Below, piece by piece: positions 736-32,419 of a stretch of 36,603 nt of DNA; position 1 is the first letter of the stretch; every line of letters begins with the position of its first letter. The stretch lies in NCBI GenBank assembly GCA_964395955.1, contig CAYNDI010000001.1, positions 1 through 36,603 of the forward strand. The letters run 5' to 3'. The notes under the pieces are model-generated. The model did not search any database. It saw only the letters and a program-made list of their open reading frames with translations, and was not told the origin of the DNA. The stretch comes from an uncultured Dehalococcoidaceae bacterium. Lineage in GTDB: Bacteria > Chloroflexota > Dehalococcoidia > Dehalococcoidales > RBG-16-60-22. The translations under genes and the position numbers were made by a program.

Positions 736-746
736 GGAGTGCGGAA

Positions 747-1652: not shown

Positions 1653-1685
1653 AGTATAGGACCATAAGAATAATGAGAAGTGTGT

Positions 1686-7466: not shown

Positions 7467-7482
7467 GCTTATCCGGGATTGA

Positions 7483-9682: not shown

Positions 9683-9697
9683 AAACAGAAAGGTATC

Positions 9698-10438: not shown

Positions 10439-10457
10439 CGAAATCTGAAAGACGGTT

Positions 10458-11174: not shown

Positions 11175-11180
11175 GGTATT

Positions 11181-11873: not shown

Positions 11874-11885
11874 GGGATTTATGCT

Positions 11886-12869: not shown

Positions 12870-12881
12870 CCGGTAAAGCGT

Positions 12882-14563: not shown

Positions 14564-14579
14564 ATTTCGATAAAAAGTA

Positions 14580-16402: not shown

Positions 16403-16416
16403 ATTATTTTCTATCC

Positions 16417-16866: not shown

Positions 16867-16868
16867 TG

Positions 16869-18637: not shown

Positions 18638-18662
18638 GAGCCGGGACCCCCAGATTATTTAT

Positions 18663-20465
18663 TTAGCATTGTACCACTTCCCGCCACACCTCTTCATTAA
18701 CCGGCGAAAAAAAGTGACTAATATCCCCGCCGGGTGCCGCCGCGGGATAACCGGTTTCGTTCAGGACAGTGATTGCTACGTCTCTCATGTCATTTTCATA
18801 GCAACTCTTTACACTTATCTCATCCATTTCTGCTATAGAATCGAGGCCGATGTTGTTTTCCGAACGGTACCTGACGACCGGTACGCCGGTCAGGAACATT
18901 TCCAGGACCATGGTCGATGAATAGCAGATGACCAGGTCGATTTCATGCAACATTTCCGGGATGTTTTGTTTCGTTTCTTTAAAATGGGCGGGCCAGGGAG
19001 GCAGCTTTATTCCCAGACGTTCGGGATTTATTGCCGGGTGGTACTTGATGAGCACCTGGATGGTGTTCATATCCGCAAAGGCATTGAGAGTAGCCAGCAG
19101 CATTTCCCCGGTAAGTCCGACCAGGTACGGCAGCGCCACCAGGATAGTCTTTGGCCGTTTCGTTACTTTTTGAGGGCGGTTTCCTGTGGTATGGTGGAGG
19201 TACTCGTATCTCAAAGCTCCGCCGTTGACCAGTTTCGTCGCGCCGAAACCGGCTTTCTCTAATTTTCCCAGCGTACTGTCGCTGTCGGTAACGATGCAGT
19301 CGGGCAGCGGCATGTGGTCGGATTCCCCGGCGCCGGCGAAGTAGTTCAAAAGGAACGAGGGCACCGTGGAATGCTGGTAGGCGATGAGCCTGACATTCTT
19401 GCCCGATTCCGCAGCGGCCAGGCAGAGCATTTTTTCCGATGGCTGGTTTTCAAAAGGATAGATAATAGTGATTTTTTCACTATCTATTTCTTTCAGCCAT
19501 CTTTTATAGGCGTAATAATAGGCGAGGTGGTTATGGAAAAATATTTCCTGCAGTGCCTGTCTCCTGAGTAGAGTCTTCAAGTGTCCCGTCTCTTTCCCGA
19601 TAAAGATGCTGAAGAAGGCAAAGAAACTCTTTAAAATATCCCGCAGGTGGAGGTAGTTGTCCAGGAAGGTAAATTCAAACCCGCCGTGCGCCAGGCATTT
19701 CTTTTTTAAGTTCTCCCGCATAAACATGGGCGTGATATAGGTAATTTTCAACGCGTTTTCCGCCAGGATAGCCGGCAAACGCCCGAAATACCCATCGTGA
19801 AACTCCCCGTCGGCGGTGAAAAACCTCTCCTGTACCCAGGAATAGATATATACCCGTCTATCGTTTTTCCCGGCTTGAGAGATGATTCGTTTGTTCCGAC
19901 TGCCGAACAATGCCGCGTTCAGGTAATGCTTAAAGGCTCTCTGGAGGAAGTACAGCCGGTAGGCGATGAACCGGGCTGACAGCTTGATGGCCTCCGGCCA
20001 CAGCCATTTACGGCTTTTAAAACGAAGTCCGGGTTTGCCTTTCTCGTAACACTCCCGGAGGTGCCGGTAAAGCCAGCGGTCCGTTACGAAAACAACCAGT
20101 AATTTTTCTCCGTTACGCGTTTCGGTGCATAGCTTTTCGAAGAGGTCGGCGTAACACCAGAGCTGGAAAAAATCGCTGGTCAGCGGATTGCGGTAGGCGG
20201 TATCCGAGGCCCACCAGTAGCGTTGGTTCTTTTGCTCCCGCCCCAGCCCGGCCAGGAAATCCAGGAAGGGCTGTTTCTGCTTCTCGGCTGTCTCCTCCAG
20301 CAAATCGCCCAGGAGCCGTCGGTTTTCTGCTCCCATTAAAACCGAGATACTCTCTCTCTGGGCGGTATCCTTTCCCAAATATAGCCAGGTAAAGTCCCTG
20401 CCGGCGGTGGCCTGCTCTGCCTTACCCGCGTCATCCGGATGGAAAACGATGACCTCGTCCTGCAT
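18663..20465 (-). CDS. Large (600-aa) uncharacterised protein; the C-terminal third resembles TagF / capsule-polymerase (KpsC/KpsS-type) GT-B-like transferases
   Basis: The ORF is long and clean, in an operon context. Its C-terminus carries KTILVALPY..., IQVLIKYHPA and IDLVICYSSTMVLEMFLTGVPVV, which match the K.HP and TDYSS..E...P-like motifs. I recognise nothing in the N-terminal ~400 aa. The CDS call is firm; the function is tentative. Confidence 0.5.
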   Translation of the reverse strand: MQDEVIVFHPDDAGKAEQATAGRDFTWLYLGKDTAQRESISVLMGAENRRLLGDLLEETAEKQKQPFLDFLAGLGREQKNQRYWWASDTAYRNPLTSDFFQLWCYADLFEKLCTETRNGEKLLVVFVTDRWLYRHLRECYEKGKPGLRFKSRKWLWPEAIKLSARFIAYRLYFLQRAFKHYLNAALFGSRNKRIISQAGKNDRRVYIYSWVQERFFTADGEFHDGYFGRLPAILAENALKITYITPMFMRENLKKKCLAHGGFEFTFLDNYLHLRDILKSFFAFFSIFIGKETGHLKTLLRRQALQEIFFHNHLAYYYAYKRWLKEIDSEKITIIYPFENQPSEKMLCLAAAESGKNVRLIAYQHSTVPSFLLNYFAGAGESDHMPLPDCIVTDSDSTLGKLEKAGFGATKLVNGGALRYEYLHHTTGNRPQKVTKRPKTILVALPYLVGLTGEMLLATLNAFADMNTIQVLIKYHPAINPERLGIKLPPWPAHFKETKQNIPEMLHEIDLVICYSSTMVLEMFLTGVPVVRYRSENNIGLDSIAEMDEISVKSCYENDMRDVAITVLNETGYPAAAPGGDISHFFSPVNEEVWREVVQC

Positions 20466-20481
20466 GCCGACAGGTCTCCTT

Positions 20482-21261
20482 CTAGCGGTCTTTATCGATG
20501 AAATCTTTCAGCTCGGTCGTGGCTTCCCGGCACCTGGCGTTGAGCATGATGGCGTCCGTGCTGTAGGCGATGAAGGTGAAGCCTTCTTTGGCCCTGTCTT
20601 TAACGTCCGAGGGAACCGGCGGGACGACATGAATGCCGGCGGCTTTTCCGGCGGCTCTGGTGGCGGCGAGTACTTTTTCTCGTGCCTGCTTCACCAGCGG
20701 GTGGTCCAGTTCTCCGGTGACGCCCAGTGAGCCGGAAATATCGTACGGCCCTATCATCACCCCATCGATGCCGGGGACGGCGATGATATCGGCGATGTTC
20801 TCTACGGCCTGTTTGTGCTCAATCTGCACGATTACCAGGCTTTCCTTGTTTACCGTGTCCTTGTATTCATCGAACTTTTCGCCCCATGCCTGAGCGCGGT
20901 AAAGCCCCACGCTCCTGTCGCCTTCGGGCGGGTACTTCACCGAGCGGACGGCTTTCTCGGCTTCCTCGGGGGTATTCACCATAGGCACGATAACACCGTA
21001 TGAACCGGCATCCATTACTCTCTTGGCCAGCGTCGGGTCGTTGCTCGTTAACCTTACCAGCGGCACGCGGCCGGAAGCCTCTATGGCCCGTACCAGCGAT
21101 TCGACGTCCTGAATGCCGATGACGCTGTGCTCCATGTCGATAGCCAGCCAGTCGAACCCGCTTTCCGCCATTATCTCGGCGATAGCGCCGTGCGAGAGGG
21201 TAATCCAGCTCCCCAGCGAGACTTTCCCGTTGCTGAGTTTTTGCTTTACTTTATTTTTCAT
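20482..21261 (-). CDS. HpcH/HpaI-family (class II, divalent-metal) pyruvate aldolase
   Basis: GSWITLSHGAIAEIMAESGFDWLAIDMEHS, VRLTSNDPTLAKRVMDAGSYGVIVPMVNTPEEA, KYPPEGDRS and VQIEHKQAVENIADIIAVPGIDGVMIGPYDIS follow the HpaI/YfaU/GarL pattern. Confidence 0.8.
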   Translation of the reverse strand: MKNKVKQKLSNGKVSLGSWITLSHGAIAEIMAESGFDWLAIDMEHSVIGIQDVESLVRAIEASGRVPLVRLTSNDPTLAKRVMDAGSYGVIVPMVNTPEEAEKAVRSVKYPPEGDRSVGLYRAQAWGEKFDEYKDTVNKESLVIVQIEHKQAVENIADIIAVPGIDGVMIGPYDISGSLGVTGELDHPLVKQAREKVLAATRAAGKAAGIHVVPPVPSDVKDRAKEGFTFIAYSTDAIMLNARCREATTELKDFIDKDR

Positions 21262-21276
21262 CTTCCCCCACCTGTC

Positions 21277-22041
21277 TTAACCCGTCGGTACGGGTAATTT
21301 ATTATTAGTGGCGCACACGTTGTAGACGCTTTCCCTGTCCGTTTTATCGATTGTGTAATTACCCCCCGCCCCCGCCACGATGGCCAGGCCGGCGGCGACG
21401 TCCCACAGCCGGATACCGGTCTCAAGGTAGGCGTCCCCCCGCCCGGCGGCAACGTAGGCTAAAGATAGTGCCGCCGAACCTATCCACCTCAGCTTTAGGA
21501 AGGCGCGTATCTGTTCGACCATTCTTTTCACGGCCTCCGGAGAGAAGTCGGCGTTCGGCGGAAAACCGGAAAACAGTATCGCTTTCTCGATTGTGTCCGT
21601 ATTGGAAACGTTAATTGCGCTGCCGTTGAGCCAGGCGCCGCTCCCGGTGATGCCCGTGAAAAGCTCGTTCCGGTTGAAATCGTAGATGGCGCCCAGCAGC
21701 GGTTCTTCCCCTCTGCAGAGAGCGATGGACACGCAGTTAACCGGTATCCCCTTGATGAAATTGATGGTGCCGTCGAGGGGGTCGACAACCCACTGCAAAT
21801 CGCTTTCCCCACTGCCTTTTATCACGCCTTTTTCCTCGGAAAGTATGGTGATAGCCGTTTTCTCCCGGAGAAAATCTATGATGATGTTTTCCGACTCTTT
21901 ATCGGCGGATATTTTTATATCCTTGCCCTCGCTGGAGTCGATTCTGACCTCGTCTTTGTTAAGGCTGGCCAGGTATTTCCCGGCCGTTACAGCGGCGTCC
22001 CCGGCGATTTGCAAATACTTGTCCAGCGTCTTTTTATCCAT
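21277..22041 (-). CDS. Inositol-monophosphatase-family (IMPase/SuhB-like) phosphatase
   Basis: The signature motifs are ILSEE, WVVDPLDGTINFIKG and LWDVAAG. Length is 254 aa. Confidence 0.8.
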   Translation of the reverse strand: MDKKTLDKYLQIAGDAAVTAGKYLASLNKDEVRIDSSEGKDIKISADKESENIIIDFLREKTAITILSEEKGVIKGSGESDLQWVVDPLDGTINFIKGIPVNCVSIALCRGEEPLLGAIYDFNRNELFTGITGSGAWLNGSAINVSNTDTIEKAILFSGFPPNADFSPEAVKRMVEQIRAFLKLRWIGSAALSLAYVAAGRGDAYLETGIRLWDVAAGLAIVAGAGGNYTIDKTDRESVYNVCATNNKLPVPTG

Positions 22042-22042
22042 A

Positions 22043-22960
22043 TTATTTTATATTTTTCAAGGCATCGAGCAGGTTGTCCACCGTTTCCATCTCCATGCGC
22101 TGCCGGCATTCCCGTGAATAGGAGCCGACGTGCGGCGTCAGTATCACCTGCGGTAAATCGGTCAGCGGCCCCCGATAGGGCTCTTCGGTAAAGGTATCCA
22201 GCCAGGCCCCGGCCACTTTACCCGACTTGATAGCCTCCACCAGACTGTCCTCGTCGATTACCCCTCCCCGCGCCGCGTTTAAAATATAGACGCCGTCCTT
22301 CATCATGCCGAACTCGTCCTTACCCAGTATCCGGGACGTGCCACTGACGTGCAGGGTAACGATATCCGCCTGTGCCAAAGCCTCCTGAAGAGTCACAATT
22401 TCGACTTCTTCAACGATGCCTTTATGGAATTTATCCACGGCCAGCAGTTTCACATCGAAAGGTTTGAGCAATTTTGCCACGTAGCGCCCGATTCTCCCGA
22501 AGCCGATAATCGCTACTGTTTTACCGGATAGCTGCGTCCCGATTTTCTTGCTCCATTTCTTCTCGTGCAGTTCCCGGTCCATGAGGGGTATCATACGCAG
22601 CAGTCCCAGCATAGCTCCTATGGCTAGTTCGGCGACGGCCGCTGTCGGGGCGTCAGGCGTGTTCATCACGGCTATGCCCAGTTCCCGCGCTGCCGTCAGG
22701 TCGATATTGCTCATCTCTACCCCGCACCGTGAAATGACTTTAAGGCTGCTTTCCGCCATAGTTTCCCGATCGATGGTCTCCAGCCCGGCAATCAGCCCGG
22801 TCACTCCCGGCAGCAGGCTTTTTAGTTCCTCTCCGGTCAGCTTTCTATGGAATGGATTGGGCACTATCTCGAAGCCGTTCGACTCCAGTTTTTCGAGCGG
22901 CGACTTATCGAGTTCACCGAATGACGAGGGTGCTATCAGGACTTTCTTTATCTCATGCAT
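22043..22960 (-). CDS. D-isomer-specific 2-hydroxyacid dehydrogenase (glycerate / phosphoglycerate dehydrogenase-like)
   Basis: The NAD motif is VAIIGFGRIGRYVAKLL. The catalytic region reads NAARGGVIDE ... LTPHVGS. Length is 305 aa. Confidence 0.8.
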   Translation of the reverse strand: MHEIKKVLIAPSSFGELDKSPLEKLESNGFEIVPNPFHRKLTGEELKSLLPGVTGLIAGLETIDRETMAESSLKVISRCGVEMSNIDLTAARELGIAVMNTPDAPTAAVAELAIGAMLGLLRMIPLMDRELHEKKWSKKIGTQLSGKTVAIIGFGRIGRYVAKLLKPFDVKLLAVDKFHKGIVEEVEIVTLQEALAQADIVTLHVSGTSRILGKDEFGMMKDGVYILNAARGGVIDEDSLVEAIKSGKVAGAWLDTFTEEPYRGPLTDLPQVILTPHVGSYSRECRQRMEMETVDNLLDALKNIK

Positions 22961-22972
22961 TTTTCTTGTCCG

Positions 22973-23941
22973 CTATTTACGCCAGAAACCGCGTAGTAAA
23001 TCACCGCGTAACATACCATCCAGAACCGACTGCATCTGCGAGACCAGTTGCGGGTCACGCGACTGATTATTGAGGCGCAGGAGAGTATCGATGTCCAGTC
23101 CGTTGCTCTGCAAGTGGACGGGTTTGAACCCGCAGCGTTCCGTCATCTGCCGCAGCGCCTCCGCAGAGAAGAGCATGATGTGCCGGTCGCCTTCGATGAT
23201 GCGGTCGATATAACCGCCGTATTTTTCGTAATAGCCCACCAGCAGCGAGTCCCCGTTGGGCACTTCCAGCACCAGCAGGCCGCCGGGCTTCAATAACTGA
23301 TATACCTTTTCCAACACCTGCTGTGGCCGGGTGAAATGTTCCAGGACGCCCCAGAGCATGATACAGTCGAACTTATGCTTTGCCGGTTGAAAATCGAAAA
23401 TCGATTCGCGGATTATATTCAGACCGAATTTCTCCCGGGCATAGCCGGCCGATAATTCGTTGAATTCCACGCCCAGGCATTCCCACCCGTTTTCGTTGAA
23501 GATGCTCAACAGCTCGCCGAGTCCGCACCCAATATCCAGGATGCTCCCCGGCTCTTTAAAGTACGCGGCTATCTGCTCGTATTTACGTCTGCCGATTACC
23601 TCCCGGCGGTAATCGACCGCGGGAATCAGCTTGTATCTGGCGGCGGCGTTATCGTCCTCCTCGTTATAGGCATCGTGCAGGATGGACTCTTTTAGCCGCG
23701 GGTTGACGTAAACCATGCCGCACCGGGCACGGCGTACGTGACGGAAACGGTTGACGGTAAACTCGGCGTTGAACCTGGTTTCTCCGCAGTTGTAGCAGTT
23801 GACGCTTTCGAAATATTCATCCCGGGATGAGCCGTCCCGCTTAAAGTACCGCGACAGCACCTTCTCGTAATGTTCGTGTATTTTATCCAGGTTGGGATTG
23901 AGTTCCCGGGTGCGAATCACCTGGTTTTCTTCCTGTTTCAT
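22973..23941 (-). CDS. Class I SAM methyltransferase with an N-terminal Cys4 zinc-ribbon (MT-A)
   Basis: The zinc ribbon is CYNCGE...x18...CGMVYVNP. Motif I, ILDIGCGLGELL, is canonical, and LGVEF supplies the acidic residue. Confidence 0.75.
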   Translation of the reverse strand: MKQEENQVIRTRELNPNLDKIHEHYEKVLSRYFKRDGSSRDEYFESVNCYNCGETRFNAEFTVNRFRHVRRARCGMVYVNPRLKESILHDAYNEEDDNAAARYKLIPAVDYRREVIGRRKYEQIAAYFKEPGSILDIGCGLGELLSIFNENGWECLGVEFNELSAGYAREKFGLNIIRESIFDFQPAKHKFDCIMLWGVLEHFTRPQQVLEKVYQLLKPGGLLVLEVPNGDSLLVGYYEKYGGYIDRIIEGDRHIMLFSAEALRQMTERCGFKPVHLQSNGLDIDTLLRLNNQSRDPQLVSQMQSVLDGMLRGDLLRGFWRK

Positions 23942-23970
23942 CTTGCTCCGTATCGCGTTATTATCGCCGG

Positions 23971-24585
23971 TCAGGCTTTACTGAGCTTCAGTCGAAGGTA
24001 TGACGTTACCATGTGGTCGATGACCATGTGGATGTCCTCGACCGGGCCGTATTCGCCCTTGCCGGTTTTTACCAGCACGGCGTAATCGCAGAGTGCGGCC
24101 AGCTTGCCGCCGTCGAAGCCTATCAATCCAATGACCGTACCGCCCATTTCTTTAGCCAGGCGGGCCGCCGCCAGGATATTCGGCGAGTTGCCGCTGCCGG
24201 AGATGGCAATCAGCAAGTCGTTTTTGGCGAACAGGTTTTGCATCTGTACGGTGAAAATGTCTTCGTAGGTAAAATCGTTGCCCAGGGCGGTCAGCAGGGG
24301 CACATTATCCACCAGGCTGATGGCTTTGAAACGGATTCCTTTATCCGGTCGACTGCACTGGATAAGGTCGGTGGCGAAGTGCGATGCCGTGGCGGCGCTG
24401 CCCCCGTTCCCCACCAGGAAGATAGCACTCCCTTTACGTGTTTTATCCAGTAATAACCCGGTCACCTGCTCCAGCACCCTGTAATCCATGCTTTGCAGCA
24501 GTTTACTCAGATGCACGCCGTAGCCGGAGAAAAAGTCCCTGGCTTTATCCATCCCGCGGAGTGACTGCGGTACCTGGTTTTCCAA
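23971..24585 (-). CDS. SIS-domain sugar-phosphate isomerase, GmhA-like
   Basis: IFLVGNGGSAATASHFATDL, LGNDFTYEDIF, LLIAISGSGNSPNIL and IGLIGFDGGKL match the GmhA (sedoheptulose-7-P isomerase) pattern. It is a single 204-aa SIS domain with no CBS domains. Confidence 0.75.
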   Translation of the reverse strand: MENQVPQSLRGMDKARDFFSGYGVHLSKLLQSMDYRVLEQVTGLLLDKTRKGSAIFLVGNGGSAATASHFATDLIQCSRPDKGIRFKAISLVDNVPLLTALGNDFTYEDIFTVQMQNLFAKNDLLIAISGSGNSPNILAAARLAKEMGGTVIGLIGFDGGKLAALCDYAVLVKTGKGEYGPVEDIHMVIDHMVTSYLRLKLSKA

Positions 24586-24617
24586 CTTCGGCTACCTCCT
24601 TGAAGATAACTATGTTT

Positions 24618-25625
24618 TTACATCTTTTTTGCCATGACGCGCGCGTAAGAGCTCAGCCGACTCTCCTGGAGAAAGTCCTGGAGGGCGTGCCAGGCTTTTT
24701 CGTCACGTTTCTTGAAAATATATCTCAGAAAATCCGGTATTGCGATATCCGGATTGTTCGCGGTGGCCGTACGTACTATTTCCACGTCCAGCCGGCCCGG
24801 CGTGCTTAGCTCTATTACTTCGAATCCCGTTTCCTTCAGCAAATTCTGGATAGCCTCTATCGAGAGCAGGTTAATCCTGTCCGGGGGGTGCAGGCGGGGC
24901 GAATCACCGTCTAATATCTGGTATTCAAAACCGCTGCTGGTATTGGTGGTAAAGAAGAACAGTCCCTGCGGTCCCAGGGCATTATGCACTTCTTTGATAA
25001 AAGCCATGGGGTCGAAGATACGCTCGATAACCTCGAAGGCGGTGAATACATCGGCTTTTCCGTCGAGCCCTTTGATATTTTCGCAGAATGAAACGCTTTC
25101 CGGCAGCAGGCCTTTCTCTTCCGGTAGCTCCGGTTTGATGGCGATTAAACGCTTGAATATACCGGCTTCATCGAGGGTGCCCAGCAGGGCGGGGTATTTG
25201 GTGCGGTAATCGGCGAAGGTCCCGGCTTCCGGCAGGTATTCGTCCGAAAGCTCCATTACCCACTGACCGAGGGGGAAGAACTGGTTGCGGTAGCGTGTTT
25301 CCCGGGTCCTGGCGGCAATCTCGTTTCTCCAGAAAGTGATAGCCTTCGAGTCGCGGTAAAAACCGTCCAACCTGTCCGCCGTAGGCCTGGGCGAGGCGAA
25401 CAGGGTGCCGCAACTCTGGCAGAGATTATACTGGAAACCCGTTTTCACGAAGGTTTTTTTATACTTTTTACCACCGCAGCCGGGGCAGTCCGTCTTTACC
25501 AGCTTTGATTCATCCGCCAGCAATACCCCCAGTTCGTCCTGTACCAGCTCCTTGTAGCGTTCGTACAGGGTATCCGGCCTTATCTCCGTTTCCCGCAGGT
25601 CTTCCAGAAAAACCACGCGTCTCAT
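24618..25625 (-). CDS. Zinc-ribbon methyltransferase-fold paralog (MT-B) with a degenerate SAM-binding motif I
   Basis: It is clearly paralogous to MT-C: both have CPGCGG...C..CGTLF..PRP, TPG.LD..IV and a shared C-terminal helix. Where MT-C has GDIGAGFG, MT-B has ADYRTKYP, and the post-I acidic residue (AIEPS) is AIKPE. Confidence 0.7.
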   Translation of the reverse strand: MRRVVFLEDLRETEIRPDTLYERYKELVQDELGVLLADESKLVKTDCPGCGGKKYKKTFVKTGFQYNLCQSCGTLFASPRPTADRLDGFYRDSKAITFWRNEIAARTRETRYRNQFFPLGQWVMELSDEYLPEAGTFADYRTKYPALLGTLDEAGIFKRLIAIKPELPEEKGLLPESVSFCENIKGLDGKADVFTAFEVIERIFDPMAFIKEVHNALGPQGLFFFTTNTSSGFEYQILDGDSPRLHPPDRINLLSIEAIQNLLKETGFEVIELSTPGRLDVEIVRTATANNPDIAIPDFLRYIFKKRDEKAWHALQDFLQESRLSSYARVMAKKM

Positions 25626-26671
25626 TTGACTATCCCTCTTTGTTTATTCAGATACCCCGCCCATTCGTTATCGGCGCGGTATATCCTCTGCACCATTTCC
25701 ATGACCTTGTAAGCGTCACGGGAGGAGCCGATGGCTACCGGCGTGTCCTCTATAATGTGCCGGGCGAAATCGTCGATTTCCATCTGCCATGACTTATCGT
25801 CTTCATAGAGGGTCAGTGTTTCGTGGGGATTAGGCAGCGGGTAGCCGTCGCGGTCATAAAGGCACCGGGCGGTCTTCAGCGTTTCCGGTGCATATGTGCC
25901 CGTGGCGGAGAGAATCCCGTCGACGGTCAGGTAGCCCTTTTCCAGGTAGATTTCCATGAGGAAACGGTGTTGCCACTGGGTTGCCGATGAATGCACCATC
26001 GCCACCTGGTTGGCCGTGTTTTTCATGATGACGAAGGCATTGTCCTCGACGGCGGTATTCCAGTAGGAACGGTTGATGAAGCTGTGGATATCGGTAAAAT
26101 CGGCGCAGAACATCAGCAGCAGGTCGACGAGGTGAATACCCTGGTCGAGTAATATGCCTCCCCCCGATATCCCGGGCTGAGTGCGCCAGTTTCGGTCGTA
26201 GCCGGGTCCGCCGGCTTTCCCGTAAATCCCCCGTATCCACATTATCTTCCCCAGCCGCCCCCTGTCGACGATTGATTTGGCGTCCTGCATGGCCTGGTGG
26301 TAGCGGTGGTTGAAGCCGAATTTTAATTTTACAGGCGGATTGGCAGTTTCTGCTTCCCGCATCAGGATAACGTCGTCCAGGTTTTTACCCGGCGGCTTTT
26401 CGCAGAATACATGAATACCCCGGTTCAGGGCATTGACCACTATCTCCGGGATATAGAGGTTGGGTGTGCATACAAATACGGCGTCAAGGTCCTGTTCCAG
26501 GAGGTCGCGATAGTCGCCGTAGAAGACGCTTTTCGGGTAGTCGGGCCGGTCTCCCGTGGTGACATCGCACACGGCGCGCAGGTCGAAAGCCGGATGGTTT
26601 TGGATTACCTCCGCCCGGATATTCCCCATCTTCCCCAGGCCGATGATGCCGACTTTGAGTCTATTTTTCAT
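25622..26671 (-). CDS. Gfo/Idh/MocA-family oxidoreductase
   Basis: The Rossmann motif is KVGIIGLGKMG and the EKP motif is VFCEKPPG. Length is 349 aa. Its stop and start codons overlap both neighbours. Confidence 0.8.
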   Translation of the reverse strand: MKNRLKVGIIGLGKMGNIRAEVIQNHPAFDLRAVCDVTTGDRPDYPKSVFYGDYRDLLEQDLDAVFVCTPNLYIPEIVVNALNRGIHVFCEKPPGKNLDDVILMREAETANPPVKLKFGFNHRYHQAMQDAKSIVDRGRLGKIMWIRGIYGKAGGPGYDRNWRTQPGISGGGILLDQGIHLVDLLLMFCADFTDIHSFINRSYWNTAVEDNAFVIMKNTANQVAMVHSSATQWQHRFLMEIYLEKGYLTVDGILSATGTYAPETLKTARCLYDRDGYPLPNPHETLTLYEDDKSWQMEIDDFARHIIEDTPVAIGSSRDAYKVMEMVQRIYRADNEWAGYLNKQRGIVK

Positions 26672-27761
26672 GCCCGCCTTTTATAATTTGTTCCATGCGC
26701 AGGTATACGTCGTCAAGCTGGACAAGTCGCAATAGTTTGCATATTTCGTAAACGACTATCTTATTATTCGAGTTCCAGGGATATTCCGCAAATCGGTTGA
26801 CGGGGATATCCCTGCCTTTCTTTTCTGGAAAAGCCGATGGTATCTTTTCCACGCGGCTGTCGCAGAGGAAAAGCGAGTCCTGACGGCCGACCCTCTGGAT
26901 GAGTTCCAGGTACTCCTTGATCTGCCGGTGCGTCATCTCCTGGAAAGCCCCGGTGCATACGGACAGGTCAATGGAGTCGTCGGCAATGGCCGGTGTCTGT
27001 CCGGGCGTCAGGAAGACGAAGTCGGCGGTATCGAAGCCGCGCGGACCTAGCTCGTGTGGCATGAGTATTTTCGCGTGTGGGAAGAGGCTGGCGAGGTGGG
27101 GGATAGATAAGCAGAGCGTTTCGGGCAGGTCTACAATGATGATATTGGAGCCGAATGTGTGGTGCAGTAAAGAGGCCAGGTTGCCGTTGCCGGCTCCGAT
27201 TTCCATGATTGTTTTCGGTTTCTCCCTAACGTATCCGTTGATGATATTGGTAAGGTAATAAGTGTAAACCATGTTGGAGTTGAGCTGATATTTATCTCCG
27301 GCGAAGAATACCCGCTTCATTTCTTCGGTAGACCTCACCGCGCCATCCTTCCTGCTTACGGCCGGAAAATCGATGCGTCCTGGGGCTGGTTCGATATCGG
27401 CTATCGGGTCCTGTGCCATCACCGCATCGAAAGCATGGAAATAGTCGAATAATCGTATCTGGCTTACCGCCTTTGCTCTGAAGTATTTATTCGCGATAAA
27501 TTCAATAATCGCGCCGGGATTACGCATGGCGGTGGCAGCCCTGTTTTTAATTACAGTGGTCGCGTTTTTCGCGGGTGGTACATAGTAGCCGGACATTCCC
27601 GTAACAGTGACGGTGCTATCGGATATTTGTACATGTATTTTGCCGGCATGGTATTCCCAGTAATCGGACTTGGCATAGCGGGACGTTTTCCGGTATTGAG
27701 GAGAGTCCATGAATTCGATAAATCTGGCGACGATATTTTTTGCCAGATTATAGGTGGCCAT
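26661..27761 (-). CDS. Putative sugar O-methyltransferase (large class I methyltransferase, 366 aa)
   Basis: Motif I, IMEIGAGNGNLASLL, sits late in the protein after a ~180-aa N-terminal domain (SDYWEYH...). This layout recalls the putative sugar O-methyltransferase family found in O-antigen and glycan loci. A strong AGGAG RBS lies upstream. Confidence 0.5.
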   Translation of the reverse strand: MATYNLAKNIVARFIEFMDSPQYRKTSRYAKSDYWEYHAGKIHVQISDSTVTVTGMSGYYVPPAKNATTVIKNRAATAMRNPGAIIEFIANKYFRAKAVSQIRLFDYFHAFDAVMAQDPIADIEPAPGRIDFPAVSRKDGAVRSTEEMKRVFFAGDKYQLNSNMVYTYYLTNIINGYVREKPKTIMEIGAGNGNLASLLHHTFGSNIIIVDLPETLCLSIPHLASLFPHAKILMPHELGPRGFDTADFVFLTPGQTPAIADDSIDLSVCTGAFQEMTHRQIKEYLELIQRVGRQDSLFLCDSRVEKIPSAFPEKKGRDIPVNRFAEYPWNSNNKIVVYEICKLLRLVQLDDVYLRMEQIIKGGHEK

Positions 27762-27868
27762 GATAACCTTCTCCTGCCTGATGCCCGTCGTTCAATTGAA
27801 CCGCAACCCTGCCGTAATCGTTACCTAAGTATAACACACCCGTGAGAGCCTTGATAACTCCCCGGTGA

Positions 27869-28861
27869 TTAACGCCCGGCCGGTTTTCTGGCTACGGCTC
27901 TCATGTGTGAACTGAATCCGCTTGCGGTAATCCAGGCCTGCAGGCTCTCTTTCGCCGCGGGTGTGGCGCGTTCGGCAAATGTCCTCCAGAGTCGTCCCGG
28001 GTCGATATTTTCGTTTCTATACATGCCTTCGACGATGTCCCAGTCGAGTTGCCCCGGGGTATCGACTTTCTCCACGATAAAGCCGCATTTTTCGAGTAAC
28101 AGGGCCAGCGAGCCGGGATTGAAGAAGTTGAGGTGGTGTGGCGGCGTCACGTTCTTGGACTTCTCCCAGAGTATCTGGATATCGAATCCCTCGCCGTTGA
28201 GGGTAGTCAGCAGCAGGCAGCCCCCGGGTTTCAGCAGCTCATGCGCTTTCTTGAGTCCGTCGGCAGGGGTGTGCAGGTGCTCCAGAAGCTCGAAAGATGT
28301 CAGCAGGTCAAAGCTCCTGTCCCGTCCCGTTACTTCCTCTATCCCGCAGGGGATAACCTCCAGGCTTTTCTCACGGCAGATATCGGCCATCTCGCCGGAC
28401 GGCTCGATAGCTGCCAGTTTAACGGCCGGCCAGAATTTACCGAGCTCTTCCAGGAAAATGCCGAATCCAGCGCCGATATCCCCGATAACCCCCTCTGATA
28501 TCTGCGTGAACTCGTCCCGGACGAACTCCGCCCTCGGTCGGAAAATCTTCTCGCGCCGGGCTTCGGCCACCGGTTTGAAGAAGTCGTTGACCCAGAAGCT
28601 GGCCGATTTTGACTTTGTATAGTAGTCCATCAGCAGGTCCGCCGGCGGACGGGGATTAACGAACAGTGTCCCGCAGTCCCGGCACAATACGTAACTGAAT
28701 CCCAGTTTCTCGAACTGGGCCCGGTGGCCCCGCCCGCCGCAGGCCGGGCAGCCAACCGGCCTGAAGAGGCTGCGGTCTTTAAAAATAGTGCGCACGTCTT
28801 CCGCTACCAGTTCCAGGTAGCGGTTCAACACCGAACGCTGGCGTATTTCCTCTTCTTTCAC
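27869..28861 (-). CDS. Class I SAM methyltransferase with an N-terminal Cys4 zinc-ribbon (MT-C)
   Basis: The zinc ribbon is CPACGG...x17...CRDCGTLFVNPRP. Motif I is IGDIGAGFGIF, the acidic residue is in AAIEPS and motif II is FDLLTSFELLEHL. Confidence 0.75.
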   Translation of the reverse strand: MKEEEIRQRSVLNRYLELVAEDVRTIFKDRSLFRPVGCPACGGRGHRAQFEKLGFSYVLCRDCGTLFVNPRPPADLLMDYYTKSKSASFWVNDFFKPVAEARREKIFRPRAEFVRDEFTQISEGVIGDIGAGFGIFLEELGKFWPAVKLAAIEPSGEMADICREKSLEVIPCGIEEVTGRDRSFDLLTSFELLEHLHTPADGLKKAHELLKPGGCLLLTTLNGEGFDIQILWEKSKNVTPPHHLNFFNPGSLALLLEKCGFIVEKVDTPGQLDWDIVEGMYRNENIDPGRLWRTFAERATPAAKESLQAWITASGFSSHMRAVARKPAGR

Positions 28862-28865
28862 CGGT

Positions 28866-29651
28866 TCAATCGCTCCTTTCCGACAGGTATCGGCCGACCA
28901 GCGGGTCTTTTTTCATATATTCTTCCACGGCGTTCAGTTGTTGCGGCGTATCCACCCCTAAGGTCTCGTAGTCAGTCGTTACCATCCTTATCTTGTAGCC
29001 GTGCTCGACGGCACGCAGCATGTCCACGGACTCTATAATTTCCAGGGGCGTCGGCTCGAGTTTATTAAATTTAAAGAGGAAGTCCCGCCGGAAAGCAATT
29101 ATACCCAGCTGCTTGAAGGCGGGTACCTGACCGGACGCCTTTTTTTGCGAAGGTATGGGCTCCCGGGAGAAATACAGGGCGTCGCTGTTATTGTCCACCA
29201 CCGTCTTGACCACGTTCGGGTCTTCGTACTCCTCGCGGTTCTTTATCCTTGCCATGAGGTTGGCGGCTGCCAGCGAAACATCCTCCAGCAGGGGGCGGAC
29301 CACCTCGTCCAGCATCTCCGGGAAAATCAGGGGTTCGTCTCCCTGGATATTGACCACGATGTCAACTTTCTGGCCGGTAGCGGCGATTATCTTTTCCGTA
29401 GCCTCGGCAATCCTGTCGGTACAGCGCTCGTGGGACGCCGAAGTCATGATGGCCTTGCCGCCGATTGATTTTACATAATCGGCAATCTCTTCATCGCACG
29501 TGGCTGCGTAGGCCTCACCGAGGGTTCGACTCATCTTGCTTCTGAAATAGACGTGTCCCACCATGGGTACGCCCAGGATTTTAGCCAGCGGTTTTCCGGG
29601 AAAGCGGGTTGATGCCATCCGGGCCGGGATTATTCCAATTACCTTCATCAT
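28866..29651 (-). CDS. KdsB-like CMP-ulosonic-acid synthetase (3-deoxy-manno-octulosonate cytidylyltransferase family)
   Basis: VIGIIPARMASTRFPGKPLAKILGVPMVGHVY and VVNIQGDEPLI follow the KdsB pattern (IIPARYASTRLPGKPL ... VNVQGDEPL). Length is 261 aa. Confidence 0.8.
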   Translation of the reverse strand: MMKVIGIIPARMASTRFPGKPLAKILGVPMVGHVYFRSKMSRTLGEAYAATCDEEIADYVKSIGGKAIMTSASHERCTDRIAEATEKIIAATGQKVDIVVNIQGDEPLIFPEMLDEVVRPLLEDVSLAAANLMARIKNREEYEDPNVVKTVVDNNSDALYFSREPIPSQKKASGQVPAFKQLGIIAFRRDFLFKFNKLEPTPLEIIESVDMLRAVEHGYKIRMVTTDYETLGVDTPQQLNAVEEYMKKDPLVGRYLSERSD

Positions 29652-29658
29652 CGATGGT

Positions 29659-31176
29659 TCACTCCGTTATATTACTATCCTCAGGCCGGTTTCTCGATAC
29701 GGTGGTGCGTATCTCCCGTATTATTACCCGTAGCTCGGTAATCGAAACGTAGTGGTGATAGAATATTGCGATTATAAAAGCCCAGATTAATAACTGACAT
29801 GCCAGCGTGATACCGGTGAAAGCCCACATGCTGTCTACTGCCGAATATAGATAGTTGTGCAGGAAATAGAAAGGAAGGCAACATGCAAAAGGTACCAGTA
29901 AAACCGCCGCAAACCTGACGAATTCACCCGGCGTTTTATAGATGTAATTTTTTATCAGGTAGTACAGAATCAATGTCACCAGGCCCTGGGTGCAGATGGT
30001 TACCCAGGCGACTCCGACTACTCCGTAACCGAGTTTGATAACCAGAATATCGAAACCGATGTTTAAAGCCAGGCCGATGGAGTAAAAGATCAGCGTGAGT
30101 TTCTGTTTGTTTACCAGGCTGGATCTCAGGATTAGCGAAGGTATAATCGCTATCGCCACCAGATAGAGATTGTAGGATAGTACGTTGAATATCGGTATGC
30201 TGTCGACATACTTCTTCGTCAGCAGGGTGGCTATCAGGGTAAAGATTAATTGAGCCAGGGGGATAACGATAGCCGTGCCCAGCGCCATATACACGGCGAT
30301 ACGCCGGGTATCCCTGAAGCCCTTATAAACCGACTCGGCGATACCGGCTTCCTGCCACAGGATGGGCTGTAACACCCTGCCGAAATCGTTGAAAAAAGTC
30401 AGCGCATAAGTTAGAAAACCCATGGCAAACGTATAGAATCCCAACTGTGCCAGGGGTAATGCCACGGCGATAATCGTCCTGTCGGCCATGCGGAAAGCCC
30501 ATAACATTATCCCCAGCCCCTGGAGAACGATACCTATTTTCACCAGCCGGATAATTTCCCGTCTGTCCAGTGAAAAGCGGAAACCGATGGCCCCCCTGGT
30601 GAAGTAGTAGACCAGCGCCACGGCATGGGCGACCAGCGGCCCCACAATCAGGGCGTAGACTTTCAGCCAGTGCAGGCTGGCCAGTATGATAACCGGGGAA
30701 ATAATCGTGATTACCAGGTTCCCCAGCGCCACTGTGTTGAATTTCTGCCTTATAAAGTTTATGTGGGACCAGAGGCCGGTCAGGCGGTTGACGACATAGC
30801 TCATAGCGATGATGAGTAGGCCGGTTTTAAGAATGGTGTCCGCATAAAAAAAGGAAGCCCCTATGATTACAGCGGTGGGGGCTATAGTATAAAGCAGTTC
30901 GGCGGAAACGGAGATATTCTGGACTCTCAACGCATCTTTCTCCCGGCCTTTTCCCAGGAGCACGGGTATTTCCCGGGAAGCGGCGCCGTATATTCCCGGT
31001 GTCACGAGGCCGACATACATCAGCCATAATGTGAGTAAACCGTAAGTCCCGTATTCCGTCGGGGTGAGTATCGTAGCGGCGTACAGGGTTACGGCCAAAC
31101 CGGCCACGGCCGATATGCCCTGCACGAAAGTGAACTTCATCGAGTTCCTGGCTATGTTGATGATGCTTATCGGCAT
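29659..31176 (-). CDS. Wzx-like oligosaccharide/polysaccharide flippase (MOP superfamily)
   Basis: The protein is 505 aa and very hydrophobic, with roughly 12-14 predicted TM helices throughout. Its position, between glycosyltransferase genes and sugar-activation genes, fits a flippase. Confidence 0.6.
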   Translation of the reverse strand: MPISIINIARNSMKFTFVQGISAVAGLAVTLYAATILTPTEYGTYGLLTLWLMYVGLVTPGIYGAASREIPVLLGKGREKDALRVQNISVSAELLYTIAPTAVIIGASFFYADTILKTGLLIIAMSYVVNRLTGLWSHINFIRQKFNTVALGNLVITIISPVIILASLHWLKVYALIVGPLVAHAVALVYYFTRGAIGFRFSLDRREIIRLVKIGIVLQGLGIMLWAFRMADRTIIAVALPLAQLGFYTFAMGFLTYALTFFNDFGRVLQPILWQEAGIAESVYKGFRDTRRIAVYMALGTAIVIPLAQLIFTLIATLLTKKYVDSIPIFNVLSYNLYLVAIAIIPSLILRSSLVNKQKLTLIFYSIGLALNIGFDILVIKLGYGVVGVAWVTICTQGLVTLILYYLIKNYIYKTPGEFVRFAAVLLVPFACCLPFYFLHNYLYSAVDSMWAFTGITLACQLLIWAFIIAIFYHHYVSITELRVIIREIRTTVSRNRPEDSNITE

Positions 31177-31177
31177 A

Positions 31178-32407: not shown

Positions 32408-32419
32408 GCTGTAACTCCG

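Follow-up and report, generated by a model that had tools for sequence, protein, structure and literature searches.

Gram-negative lineages normally possess KdsA and KdsB, and the carbon-carbon bond in the described routes is made by a PEP-dependent synthase of the KdsA or NeuB type. In E. coli KdsB the C5 hydroxyl of Kdo is held by Y185 and Q98, and 5-deoxy-Kdo is not a substrate for the enzyme (PMC12199768). Aldolases of the HpcH family take aldoses (glyceraldehyde, erythrose and ribose; PMC7610986), and enzymes of this family use hydroxypyruvate as the donor with sugar aldehydes (PMC7610986, PMC10099721). We found no published description in the literature of a cassette in which such an aldolase builds a CMP-sugar. 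The window analyzed here is an entire NCBI contig of 36,603 bp, and statements of absence about it cover that contig alone. A preliminary description of the window proposed that one gene block reproduces the four steps of Kdo synthesis with enzymes of other folds. That proposal is partly supported: the association of an aldolase with a cytidylyltransferase held up, and the simple four-step copy of the Kdo pathway did not.

Results

The glycan operon comprises 19 co-directional minus-strand genes (15434-34421) separated by intergenic gaps of -113 to +107 nt, the majority of which are 16 nt or less. An ORF check found the genes named in the preliminary description at precisely the coordinates given there, all on the minus strand (Table 1), which confirms the gene set as originally observed, and the Pfam families predicted for it (PF03328, PF00459, PF13580, PF02348 and PF02826) were all matched. 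Profile searches of the ORFs of the whole contig gave no match to a NeuB- or KdsA-type synthase, as had been claimed.

Table 1. Features of the glycan locus discussed in the text, with supporting matches
Feature	Position	Strand	Evidence
B12-binding radical SAM protein, locus edge	4791..6290	+	PF02310 + PF04055
GT-B-fold protein, 600 aa, candidate CMP-sugar transferase	18663..20465	-	Structure model + Foldseek
Class II (metal-dependent) HpcH/HpaI-family 2-oxoacid aldolase	20482..21261	-	PF03328 HpcH_HpaI, 142 bits
IMPase-family phosphatase	21277..22041	-	PF00459 Inositol_P, 177 bits
PGDH-like D-2-hydroxyacid dehydrogenase	22043..22960	-	PF02826 + PF00389
MT1, SAM-dependent methyltransferase, N-terminal zinc ribbon	22973..23941	-	Methyltransf_23, 99 bits
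GmhA-like single-SIS-domain sugar-phosphate isomerase	23971..24585	-	PF13580 SIS_2 + PF01380 SIS
MT2, methyltransferase-fold paralogue	24618..25625	-	Methyltransf_23, C-terminal half only
Gfo/Idh/MocA NAD(P)-dependent sugar oxidoreductase	25622..26671	-	PF01408 (GFO_IDH_MocA), PF22725, PF02894
NanM-type putative sugar O-methyltransferase	26661..27761	-	TIGR04371, 104 bits vs cutoff 44
MT4, SAM-dependent methyltransferase	27869..28861	-	Methyltransf_23, 67 bits
KdsB', KdsB-like CMP-ulosonic-acid synthetase, changed sugar pocket	28866..29651	-	PF02348, 162 bits
Wzx-type flippase	29659..31176	-	Polysacc_synt_3 + Polysacc_synt

The aldolase scores under all NCBIfam equivalog cutoffs (score/cutoff: HpaI, 205/369; GarL, 191/407; RhmA, 176/441), and its best PDB match is GarL. 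The catalytic residues H45, R70, E148 and D174 do not vary across the aldolase subfamily and correspond to the His, Arg, Glu and Asp of HpaI, GarL and YfaU, while Y173 (73/74) and Y/F233 (70/74) form a signature of the subfamily. His211 in the aldolase pocket might have pointed to a hydroxylated donor, but it is also found in 37 of 43 relatives that lack linkage to a cytidylyltransferase.

KdsB' exceeds the NCBIfam cutoffs for KdsB (PRK13368, 318/255; TIGR00466, 179/155), and because these curated cutoffs are passed, its substrate could be Kdo itself or an epimer close to it. Its identity is about 40% with E. coli KdsB and KpsU and 55-60% with the copies in cassettes of other phyla. Residues R10, K19, Q98 and D100 are retained, and the changes Y11M, S74R, H181Q, Y185I, E210D and Q211M make up a signature present in 41-46 of 47 aldolase-adjacent copies, with H181, Y185 and E210/Q211 replaced in 42-46 of the 47; the EQ pair of the LEQLR motif has become DM. 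Since two Kdo-site residues are lost, one of them (Y185) with a reported contact, KdsB' is unlikely to be a CMP-Kdo synthetase in the strict sense, in line with the preliminary description, and the changed pocket suggests that its substrate probably differs from Kdo.

Linkage was assessed in 21 metagenomic loci where a subfamily aldolase has flanks of 3 kb or more on either side, and in 37 control loci with aldolases of 44% identity or less. A CTP_transf_3 gene lay within 8 kb of the aldolase in 20/21 loci (95%) and within 300 bp in 14/21, whereas a cytidylyltransferase was found in 0/37 controls, which supports a functional link between the two enzymes. A 2-hydroxyacid dehydrogenase was present in 17/21 loci (81%) and a phosphatase, either HAD or IMPase, in 14/21 (67%), compared with a phosphatase in 0/37 controls. 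Across loci the partner of the aldolase is a KdsB-like or else a PseF-like cytidylyltransferase, and the adjacency extends over at least seven named phyla. The gene combination is not a chance juxtaposition: it is syntenic in L001 and L002 (74-92% protein identity), and many phyla have it in a different gene order. Organic-acid catabolism had been raised as an alternative context, but the cassette genes are located within Wzx/Wzy/glycosyltransferase loci, and no catabolic partners (dehydratases, transporters) are conserved around them. Public pipelines label the cassette proteins RhmA/GarL and KdsB.

Named hosts include bins or isolates of CPR, Chloroflexota and Bacillota, among them a Nealsonbacteria bin (CPR, L004), a Ferdinandcohnia isolate (Bacillaceae, L003) and a bin labelled Dehalococcoidaceae (L006, 91% identity). 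The cassette is carried by Gram-negative hosts as well. The Ferdinandcohnia cassette contains a FAH-family (tautomerase/decarboxylase-like) gene.

The dehydrogenase retains the catalytic Arg/Glu/His and is nearest in the PDB to PGDH (1wwk) and human PHGDH, yet it scores 221 bits against TIGR01327 (cutoff 454), and the 'VRS' anion site of PGDH is absent, a conserved G.IAG.EP motif being found instead. Its gene occurs in 81-84% of well-flanked cassette loci. The 2-hydroxyacid dehydrogenase is therefore a core member of the cassette rather than the accessory that it was first taken for, and a Kdo-type scheme offers no step for it. The IMPase-family phosphatase scores under all equivalog cutoffs. 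Most related cassettes have a HAD_2 phosphatase in its place, the IMPase being in the minority, and the HAD proteins are similar to small-acid phosphatases of the phosphoglycolate type. Because IMPase and HAD substitute for each other, the phosphatase appears to be an integral step of the pathway, as first suggested.

The isomerase gene is found in about 24% of cassette loci, mostly adjoining the Gfo gene, and the two form an optional module (type II cassette); the more common cassette type has an SDR instead, as counted with a generic SDR profile. With the SIS isomerase in roughly one-quarter of loci and the IMPase the minority phosphatase, a scheme that copies Kdo synthesis in four steps oversimplifies the cassette. 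Against TIGR00441 gmhA the isomerase scores 114 bits (cutoff 209), and its top PDB matches are phosphoheptose isomerases (about 99 bits). It retains the phosphate loop SGSGNSPN and a metal site of GmhA type, with H, D (for E), E (for Q) and H at what we take to be the positions that bind Zn in the B. pseudomallei enzyme. The heptose precursor hinted at earlier has this below-cutoff similarity to GmhA as its sole support. The top NCBIfam matches of the Gfo protein, IolG and UDP-GlcNAc 3-dehydrogenase, are both far under cutoff.

Four proteins have a methyltransferase fold, as originally counted. Motif I is intact in MT1 (DIGCGLG) and MT4 (DIGAGFG), but reads DYRTKYP in MT2, likewise in its L004 and L086 orthologues. 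MT2, which lacks the SAM-binding glycine motif, is probably not a catalytic methyltransferase. In related loci (L004, L010, L086 and L087) MT4 often lies between the aldolase and the cytidylyltransferase.

The GT-B-fold protein has no Pfam match and scores 95 bits against TIGR04326, 'surface carbohydrate biosynthesis protein' (cutoff 250). Its AlphaFold model (pLDDT 88.6) retrieved only generic GT-B proteins with Foldseek (CalG, UDP-GlcNAc 2-epimerases, WaaA and TarL), and its C-terminal domain is homologous to unannotated cassette companions elsewhere (hhalign probabilities 95-97%). The Wzx-type flippase directly upstream of KdsB' keeps its place in L001 and L002. Cassettes L004, L086, L087, L088, L097, L103 and L116 contain radical SAM genes, most of them B12-binding, and the one at the locus edge in the window may take part in tailoring, an uncertain assignment.

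Discussion

What does the cassette make? We consider it reasonably likely, judging from the sequence comparisons, that it provides an aldolase-dependent route to a CMP-activated 2-ulosonic acid akin to Kdo and the sialic acids but distinct from Kdo, and that the adjacent GT-B-fold protein uses the product. The carbon-carbon bond would most likely be formed by the metal-dependent HpcH-type aldolase rather than by a PEP-dependent KdsA/NeuB synthase. Where present, the GmhA-like isomerase would convert a ketose phosphate to a manno-type aldose phosphate, a step that is not general since the isomerase is found in only about one-quarter of loci. The aldolase, with its catalytic residues in place, would then extend an aldose or aldose phosphate with a 2-oxo acid, which reacts as its enolate. 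We give pyruvate about an even chance of being the donor; hydroxypyruvate from the PGDH-like dehydrogenase is a weaker candidate, and some other compound weaker still. The equilibrium of pyruvate aldol reactions lies toward cleavage, and later steps would need to pull the product.

The IMPase-family protein, proposed to act on a sugar phosphate or acid phosphate, would strip the phosphate before or after the aldol step. KdsB', which belongs to the expected family and keeps its catalytic residues, would link the putative non-Kdo sugar to CMP. Redox steps catalyzed by the Gfo oxidoreductase and by the 2-hydroxyacid dehydrogenase may help to provide the sugar or to modify it, and up to three active methyltransferases would O-methylate it. 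The product is probably O-methylated, although the methyltransferases could act instead on CDP-6-deoxyhexose or ManNAc units from the same operon. Finally, the GT-B-fold protein would transfer the sugar onto the repeat unit, and the Wzx flippase would export that unit.

An alternative, which we regard as fairly unlikely, is that the aldolase nucleophile is hydroxypyruvate and the product a Ko-like 2-ulosonic acid, 3-hydroxylated and non-deoxy. The donor would come from 3-phosphoglycerate, via glycerate or phosphohydroxypyruvate, through the PGDH-like dehydrogenase and the phosphatase. A PEP-dependent synthase cannot make a 3-hydroxylated product, which would explain the use of an aldolase. No partners are better conserved than the dehydrogenase and a phosphatase, which mostly adjoin the aldolase, the dehydrogenase is nearest to PGDH and glycerate/glyoxylate reductases, and the resemblance of the HAD members to small-acid phosphatases, the altered KdsB' pocket and the documented donor range of HpcH-family enzymes are all in keeping with this scheme. 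However, the anion-binding motif of PGDH is missing, His211 is not cassette-specific, and the dehydrogenase is absent from 6 of 37 well-flanked cassette loci, which speaks against an obligatory hydroxypyruvate supply; the aldolase pocket positions in these six are no different. Moreover, a phosphatase used for the donor leaves the SIS-made phosphosugar without one of its own, and we know of no CMP-activated 3-hydroxy-ulosonic acid.

It is improbable that the locus encodes the ordinary CMP-Kdo route as literally first proposed, in which ribulose-5-P is converted to arabinose-5-P, condensation with pyruvate gives Kdo-8-P, and a true KdsB activates the dephosphorylated product, with tailoring after transfer. 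Kdo aldolase activity (EC 4.1.2.23) occurs in nature, the window encodes an aldolase and a phosphatase together with an isomerase of GmhA/KdsD type, and the cytidylyltransferase passes both KdsB cutoffs at an identity of about 40% to KdsB and KpsU. Yet the Kdo-site replacements affect nearly all cassette copies, E. coli KdsB requires the C5-OH contacts, most cassettes are missing the isomerase, the dehydrogenase and Gfo/SDR enzymes are left without explanation, and the cassette also occurs in Gram-negative lineages that are normally equipped with KdsA/KdsB.

More doubtful still is a reversal of the lower glucarate pathway, in which phosphoglycerate would yield D-glycerate (phosphatase) and then hydroxypyruvate or tartronate semialdehyde (dehydrogenase), and a GarL-like aldolase would add pyruvate to give a 3-deoxy-hex-2-ulosaric diacid, the C6 analogue of Dha, for CMP activation. 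Such a scheme, GarK/GarR/GarL run backwards, draws on central metabolites only, suits the minimal type I cassette without an isomerase, and fits both the top PDB match, GarL, and the FAH-family gene in Ferdinandcohnia. Against it, YfaU and HpaI score as well as GarL does, the GarL score is far under the GarL cutoff, a 2-hydroxyacid dehydrogenase yields hydroxypyruvate rather than the aldehyde, a C6 diacid closes only a furanose ring, unlike known KdsB/PseF substrates, and the SIS phosphosugar isomerase has no role. Already disfavoured, and very improbable, is the absence of any common pathway (aldolase, dehydrogenase and phosphatase serving organic-acid metabolism beside a housekeeping or capsule KdsB), for which the public pipeline names and the 7.6 kb between aldolase and KdsB' in the window could be cited, but which is contradicted by the breadth and specificity of the linkage, the embedding in glycan loci, the lack of conserved catabolic partners and the occurrence of the cassette in groups without LPS (a CPR bin, a Bacillaceae isolate).

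The preferred reading, an aldolase-dependent route to a CMP-activated non-Kdo sugar, fits this distribution, as the groups to which the Nealsonbacteria, Bacillaceae and Dehalococcoidaceae-labelled hosts belong are taken to be without LPS. The block described here belongs to a cassette that is widespread but uncharacterised.

Results

The aldolase and cytidylyltransferase lie in one long glycan operon

All of the genes named in the preliminary description were confirmed with identical coordinates, on the minus strand and in the predicted families. They belong to a co-directional block of 19 genes in which the gaps are mostly 16 nt or less and four overlaps occur, and which includes four methyltransferase-fold proteins. 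In its upstream part the block encodes a WecB that scores as the non-hydrolyzing type (426 bits; cutoff 210), together with an SDR epimerase, a GT4 glycosyltransferase and a Wzx-type flippase, and the downstream part encodes an unannotated protein of 600 residues and a CDP-glucose pathway. The window spans a complete NCBI contig of 36,603 bp. No KdsA- or NeuB-type synthase was matched among the ORFs of this contig, and KdsC was not found on it either. Neither Rfam nor tRNA scans of the window gave a hit.

Coordinates and assignments of features in the window
Feature	Coordinates	Strand	Evidence or remark
Opp-type ABC transporter	19-3661		non-glycan flank, together with the HypA-like gene that follows
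HypA-like protein, 137 aa	3728-4141	+	only the first 60 of 112 HypA model positions matched
B12-binding radical SAM protein	4791-6290	+	edge of the locus
Second glycan gene set	6468-15407	+	converges on the co-directional block
Second Gfo oxidoreductase	8624-9682	+	
IspD/MobA-like NTP transferase	9698-10438	+	
Asp/Glu racemase	11181-11873	+	unusual for a glycan locus
Protein with CDP-glycerol glycerophosphotransferase-like segment	11886-12869	+	
Co-directional block, 19 genes	15434-34421	-	
CDP-hexose pathway, last four genes of the operon	15434-18637	-	
Epimerase-like cupin, 149 aa	16417-16866	-	dTDP_sugar_isom and Polysacc_synt_C
Glucose-1-P cytidylyltransferase (NTP transferase)	17849-18637	-	309 bits, cutoff 300
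HpcH_HpaI aldolase (PF03328)	20482-21261	-	142 bits, Pfam cutoff 25
Inositol_P (IMPase-type) phosphatase	21277-22041	-	Pfam
D-2-hydroxyacid dehydrogenase	22043-22960	-	PF02826 170 bits, PF00389 78 bits
SIS_2/SIS, GmhA-like isomerase	23971-24585	-	Pfam
Methyltransferase-fold paralogue	24618-25625	-	SAM motif I lost
Gfo/Idh/MocA oxidoreductase	25622-26671	-	Pfam
Sugar O-methyltransferase	26661-27761		passes NanM-type model
CTP_transf_3 cytidylyltransferase (KdsB')	28866-29651	-	Pfam
SDR epimerase	32420-33451	-	TTG start as listed
Non-hydrolyzing WecB	33339-34421	-	

Besides the glucose-1-P cytidylyltransferase, the last four genes of the operon encode a CDP-glucose 4,6-dehydratase-like SDR, a small 3,5-epimerase-like cupin and a reductase, and as a set they suggest that the glycan contains a second unusual sugar, made as a CDP-6-deoxyhexose. 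The cupin is odd in that its two Pfam families are matched by the same residues, and it is shorter than RmlC-type epimerases. At the other end of the operon, the ORF of the SDR epimerase and the end of wecB share 113 nt. Since its Pfam match begins at residue 39, the true start is probably further downstream. The plus-strand half of the locus additionally encodes glycosyltransferases, a methyltransferase and a hexapeptide acyltransferase.

The aldolase recurs with a cytidylyltransferase in diverse genomes

Relatives of the window aldolase number in the thousands. The closest (53-99% identity) are almost all metagenomic and carry pipeline names only, such as RhmA or GarL. The nearest named relative (89-91% protein identity) lies on a 2.7-kb contig in a bin labeled Dehalococcoidaceae, and so short a contig is weak taxonomic evidence. 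Among the other loci that carry aldolase relatives (designated by L-numbers), L001 and L002 are fully syntenic with the window. A locus in a Nealsonbacteria bin of the CPR (L004) carries genes for a Gfo-like protein, a methyltransferase, a SIS protein, two radical SAM proteins, a 2-hydroxyacid dehydrogenase, an IMPase, the aldolase, a methyltransferase and a CTP_transf_3 protein, and a Bacillaceae isolate (L003) has Wzy, CTP_transf_3, aldolase, 2-hydroxyacid dehydrogenase, FAH, Wzx and HAD genes. Further variants of the neighborhood are found in L086-L089. A scan of species-representative genomes divided the aldolases clearly: those with at least about 45% identity adjoin a cytidylyltransferase, in bins labeled Desulfovibrionaceae, Thermodesulfobacteriota, Omnitrophota, Brocadiaceae, Desulfamplus, Rhodobacterales and others, while those with 44% identity or less, from Roseomonas, Bradyrhizobium and others, never do. 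Searches of plasmids by tblastn returned only catalogued HpaI/GarL-type aldolases of at most 41% identity, and no cassette.

A metagenome scan seeded with aldolase motifs alone gave 80 further loci, and profile HMMs built from the cassette proteins were mapped onto all loci. Linkage was counted in 21 loci that had at least 3 kb on either side of the aldolase, with partners scored within 8 kb. A CTP_transf_3 cytidylyltransferase was present in 20 of the 21 (within 300 bp in 14), a 2-hydroxyacid dehydrogenase in 17, a phosphatase in 14 (12 HAD, 2 IMPase), a Gfo oxidoreductase in 10 and a SIS isomerase in 5. Neither a cytidylyltransferase nor a phosphatase was found near the aldolase in any of 37 control loci, which carry more distant aldolases (44% identity or less). 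Of 37 loci with the cassette, only six had a NeuB homologue close by, in many cases accompanied by a separate cytidylyltransferase. The preliminary description had proposed a Kdo-type route assembled from non-orthologous parts, with a pyruvate aldolase in place of KdsA or NeuB, and had asked whether PF03328 and PF02348 co-occur in glycan loci or whether the neighborhood is instead catabolic; the co-occurrence was borne out (20/21 versus 0/37 in the controls) and a catabolic neighborhood was absent, both of which favor a glycan pathway.

Two architectures of the cassette were distinguished. The commoner, type I, consists of a KdsB-like enzyme, the aldolase, a 2-hydroxyacid dehydrogenase, an SDR and a HAD protein (e.g., L126, L132, L135, L144, L148, L159, L166 and L088). 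The SDR profile also matches generic extended SDRs, so type I is better evidenced by the fixed position of the SDR between the dehydrogenase and the HAD gene. Type II, to which the window belongs, comprises the aldolase, a KdsB-like enzyme, Gfo, SIS, an IMPase or HAD phosphatase and the 2-hydroxyacid dehydrogenase, usually with methyltransferases and sometimes with radical SAM genes, most of them B12-binding. The type I SDR corresponds to the Gfo and SIS pair of type II, and the IMPase and HAD phosphatases are non-orthologous replacements of one another. The partners shared by both types thus define a core of aldolase, cytidylyltransferase, 2-hydroxyacid dehydrogenase and phosphatase, all four of which the window operon has within 8 kb and in a glycan locus.

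Radical SAM genes, mostly of the B12-binding kind, lie inside the cassettes of L004, L086, L087, L088, L097, L103 and L116, which suggests that the sugar is C-methylated or tailored by other radical chemistry. A third type of CTP_transf_3 protein is encoded 5-9 kb from the aldolase in L094, L108, L008 (3926-4693) and L161; it has a D/T/W/Q/N pocket at the positions examined, and the alignment shows a gap at its LEQLR segment. A NeuB homologue accompanies it in L094 and L108, which implies that several CMP-acid pathways coexist in one locus.

The cytidylyltransferase has an altered sugar pocket

The KdsB-like enzyme of the window and its cassette copies (hereafter KdsB') belong to the KdsB family at the sequence level. 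The window protein scores above the curated KdsB cutoffs (PRK13368, 318/255; TIGR00466, 179/155) and shares about 40% identity with KdsB and KpsU of E. coli and 55-60% with cassette copies from CPR or Desulfobacterota. The nucleotide- and metal-binding residues R10, K19, Q98 and D100 are retained in 45-47 of 47 aldolase-adjacent copies. Against a canonical side of three sequences, the substitutions Y11M, S74R, H181Q, Y185I, E210D and Q211M occur in 41-46 of the 47; among the cassette copies, H181 is replaced by Q in 46/47, Y185 by I in 42/47, and the EQ of LEQLR by DM in 44/44. In the E. coli enzyme, the C5 hydroxyl of Kdo is held by Y185 together with Q98, 5-deoxy-Kdo does not serve as a substrate, and H181 has been placed in the active-site model (PMC12199768). 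So consistent a specificity signature speaks against Kdo as the substrate of KdsB'. In other loci the same aldolase is paired with a PseF-like enzyme of 224 residues.

The aldolase keeps its catalytic residues and has a modified aldehyde pocket

Residues H45, R70, E148 and D174 are invariant in 18 members of the aldolase subfamily and align with the His, Arg, Glu and Asp of GarL, YfaU and HpaI. The aldolase nevertheless falls under the NCBIfam equivalog cutoffs for HpaI (205/369 bits), GarL (191-195/393-407) and RhmA (176/441). The aldehyde pocket of this family is formed by a Trp, the Leu of G-x-L and the Val before the last Asp (PMC8560999). Relative to the hydrophobic pocket of GarL, YfaU and HpaI, that of the cassette aldolase retains the Trp but has His211 at the Leu position, Tyr/Phe233 at that of Val and Tyr173 where those enzymes have Ala or Ser, and it is more polar. 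Of these residues, Tyr173 and Tyr/Phe233 alone distinguish the cassette clade. We rejected His211 as a cassette marker of a hydroxylated donor because it is also present in 37 of 43 unlinked relatives.

The other cassette proteins depart from their closest characterized families

The best PDB matches of the SIS protein are phosphoheptose isomerases, and it scores 114 against the cutoff of 209 for TIGR00441 (gmhA). At the positions of the Zn ligands of B. pseudomallei GmhA, the two His are kept, Glu is replaced by Asp and Gln by Glu; the SGSGNSPN phosphate loop is intact. None of the nucleotide-heptose partners (kinase, GmhB, heptose-1-P nucleotidyltransferase) is encoded in the operon. That the GmhA-like gene feeds a GDP-heptose route through the downstream NTP transferase and dehydratase was rejected, since those genes form the CDP-glucose pathway and the heptose kinase and GmhB are absent. 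Another candidate, in which WecB would act as a NeuC-type hydrolyzing epimerase and supply the aldolase with ManNAc, was rejected because the protein scores only 90 bits for NeuC but 426 bits as a non-hydrolyzing WecB.

The 2-hydroxyacid dehydrogenase is closest to PGDH (TIGR01327, 221 against a cutoff of 454) and keeps the Arg/Glu/His catalytic triad when aligned with human PHGDH. The anion-binding Arg motif of PGDH (VRS / RSR) is replaced by IAGLE, and the pattern G.IAG.EP is conserved in 44 cassette copies, which makes 3-phosphoglycerate doubtful as a substrate.

One methyltransferase-fold protein (24618-25625) and its orthologues (L004:4564-5574; L086:3928-4935) have lost the glycine-rich SAM motif I. 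The motif reads DYRTKYP or DYKPKYF in place of DIGxGxG; the protein still has a Cys4 zinc ribbon and the fold's C-terminal half, and the gene is conserved beside those for Gfo and SIS. The paralogue may be a pseudo-enzyme or a binding subunit.

The neighboring protein of 600 residues scores weakly against TIGR04326 (surface carbohydrate biosynthesis protein) and was modeled confidently as a GT-B fold (pLDDT 88.6). Foldseek searches with it returned generic GT-B matches only, none of them to a particular family of Kdo transferases or sialyltransferases. The C-terminal domain shows homology to unannotated cassette companions elsewhere (hhalign, 95-97%), one of which has weak similarity to TarB and the BFO_1060 glycosyltransferase. 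The protein is a plausible candidate for the CMP-sugar-dependent transferase.

Discussion

The enzyme families, intact catalytic residues, gene linkage and altered sugar pocket of KdsB' are established at the level of sequence and gene context, and together they suggest a CMP-ulosonic acid pathway in which another enzyme forms the C-C bond and further steps belong to the core. In the proposed scheme, a ketose phosphate would be isomerized to an aldose phosphate, the aldolase would add the enolate of a 2-oxo acid to the aldose or aldose phosphate, and the phosphate would be taken off before or after the aldol step. The free ulosonic acid would then be activated with CTP, tailored by the redox enzymes and methyltransferases, and transferred by the GT-B protein. 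Isomerases of the GmhA, KdsD and PMI types all yield manno-type aldoses, and products of eight, nine or ten carbons are thus conceivable for type II cassettes. In type I, the aldose must be a central aldose phosphate or one made by the SDR of the cassette.

As the C3 donor of the aldolase we favor pyruvate, at roughly an even chance, since every catalytic feature matches the pyruvate aldolases and 6 of 37 well-flanked cassettes lack the dehydrogenase. Hydroxypyruvate is an attractive, if less likely, alternative: it would let the near-universal dehydrogenase act jointly with the phosphatase and would explain the use of an aldolase in place of a PEP synthase, and the HpcH family offers in vitro precedent for this donor (PMC7610986, PMC10099721). 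Another possible role for the dehydrogenase, with Gfo or SDR, is oxidation-reduction epimerization, by analogy with nonulosonic acid pathways in which redox pairs such as EpaA/EpaB remodel the sugar (PMC12053666).

The product may be an undescribed class of CMP-activated ulosonic acid, with a class II aldolase as the dedicated C-C bond former, a reading we hold tentatively and at slightly less than an even chance. Candidates are a 3-hydroxylated acid derived from hydroxypyruvate, a C5-epimeric or C9-C10 3-deoxy acid, and a multiply methylated form. One competing explanation is ordinary CMP-Kdo made by an alternative route. The CMP-Kdo pathway (KdsD, KdsA, KdsC and KdsB; KpsF and KpsU in capsules) likewise combines an isomerase for phosphosugars, a step that adds a C3 unit to yield a 2-ulosonic acid, a phosphatase and a CTP_transf_3 enzyme. 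However, this explanation is disfavored because it is contradicted by the KdsB' signature, in which H181, Y185 and the EQ of LEQLR are missing, and because it leaves the redox enzymes unexplained. The cassette also differs in lacking KdsA, with an HpcH TIM-barrel aldolase forming the C-C bond, in having an IMPase or HAD_2 phosphatase rather than KdsC and an optional, GmhA-like isomerase, and in adding a 2-hydroxyacid dehydrogenase and a second oxidoreductase to the core. A reversal of the lower glucarate pathway that yields a C6 ulosaric acid would account for the phosphatase, dehydrogenase and aldolase, but it fits poorly, being at odds with a pyranose-type cytidylyltransferase and a SIS enzyme. 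That the genes have unrelated functions and share no pathway is excluded as far as comparative genomics can do so.

The nonulosonic acid pathways (NeuC/NeuB/NeuA, Pse, Leg, and the Kdn-9-P synthase, phosphatase and CMP-Kdn synthetase) resemble the predicted pathway in that they also deliver a CMP-activated alpha-keto acid from a surface-glycan locus; some cassettes have a PseF-like cytidylyltransferase, and a NanM-type O-methyltransferase is present. Unlike those pathways, the cassette has no NeuB-type PEP condensation, and its core includes neither an aminotransferase nor an acetyltransferase. The window aldolase shares its fold and its catalytic His, Arg, Glu and Asp with the catabolic class II enzymes HpaI/HpcH, GarL and RhmA/YfaU and with the hydroxyketoacid aldolase SwHKA, but its context is biosynthetic glycan loci and not the catabolism of aromatics or sugar acids. 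In vitro, those enzymes add pyruvate or hydroxypyruvate to sugar aldehydes (PMC7610986).

The reaction proposed for the cassette aldolase is that of Kdo aldolase (EC 4.1.2.23) and the N-acetylneuraminate lyase NanA, both of which join pyruvate and an aldose into a 3-deoxy-2-ulosonic acid. They act in catabolism; NanA, which belongs to another family, is a Schiff-base enzyme of class I, and to our knowledge neither serves as a dedicated biosynthetic step of a CMP-sugar pathway. We also know of no established route to Kdo, sialic, pseudaminic or legionaminic acid or Kdn that does not depend on a PEP-dependent synthase of the KdsA/NeuB type, and genome surveys for acidic surface sugars accordingly search for those genes. 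In our full-text literature search, no account of an aldolase-dependent route to CMP-ulosonic acids came to light.

A similar gene set may exist in a cultured pathogen. The capsule locus of Campylobacter coli 76339 (BN865_07090-07150) contains consecutive genes annotated as encoding a 2-dehydro-3-deoxyglucarate aldolase, a D-3-phosphoglycerate dehydrogenase, an NAD-dependent epimerase/dehydratase, a HAD hydrolase and a GT42 sialyltransferase homologue (PMC3928612). Going by the published annotation only, this is the type I order beside a CMP-sugar transferase family, and the published table names no cytidylyltransferase (PMC3928612).

If the proposed pathway is correct, surveys based on KdsA and NeuB overlook a whole set of organisms, and the cassette would represent a third, independent solution beside those two enzymes in many mostly uncultured phyla, including the CPR and Chloroflexota. 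It would bring one or more new sugars to bacterial glycobiology and correct a systematic mis-annotation, since these proteins now go under the names RhmA/GarL, phosphoglycerate dehydrogenase and KdsB. It would also offer new biocatalysts, namely an aldolase tuned to sugar acceptors and a cytidylyltransferase of altered specificity. The apparent cassette in the C. coli capsule locus, known from annotation only, would add medical relevance and an experimental handle.
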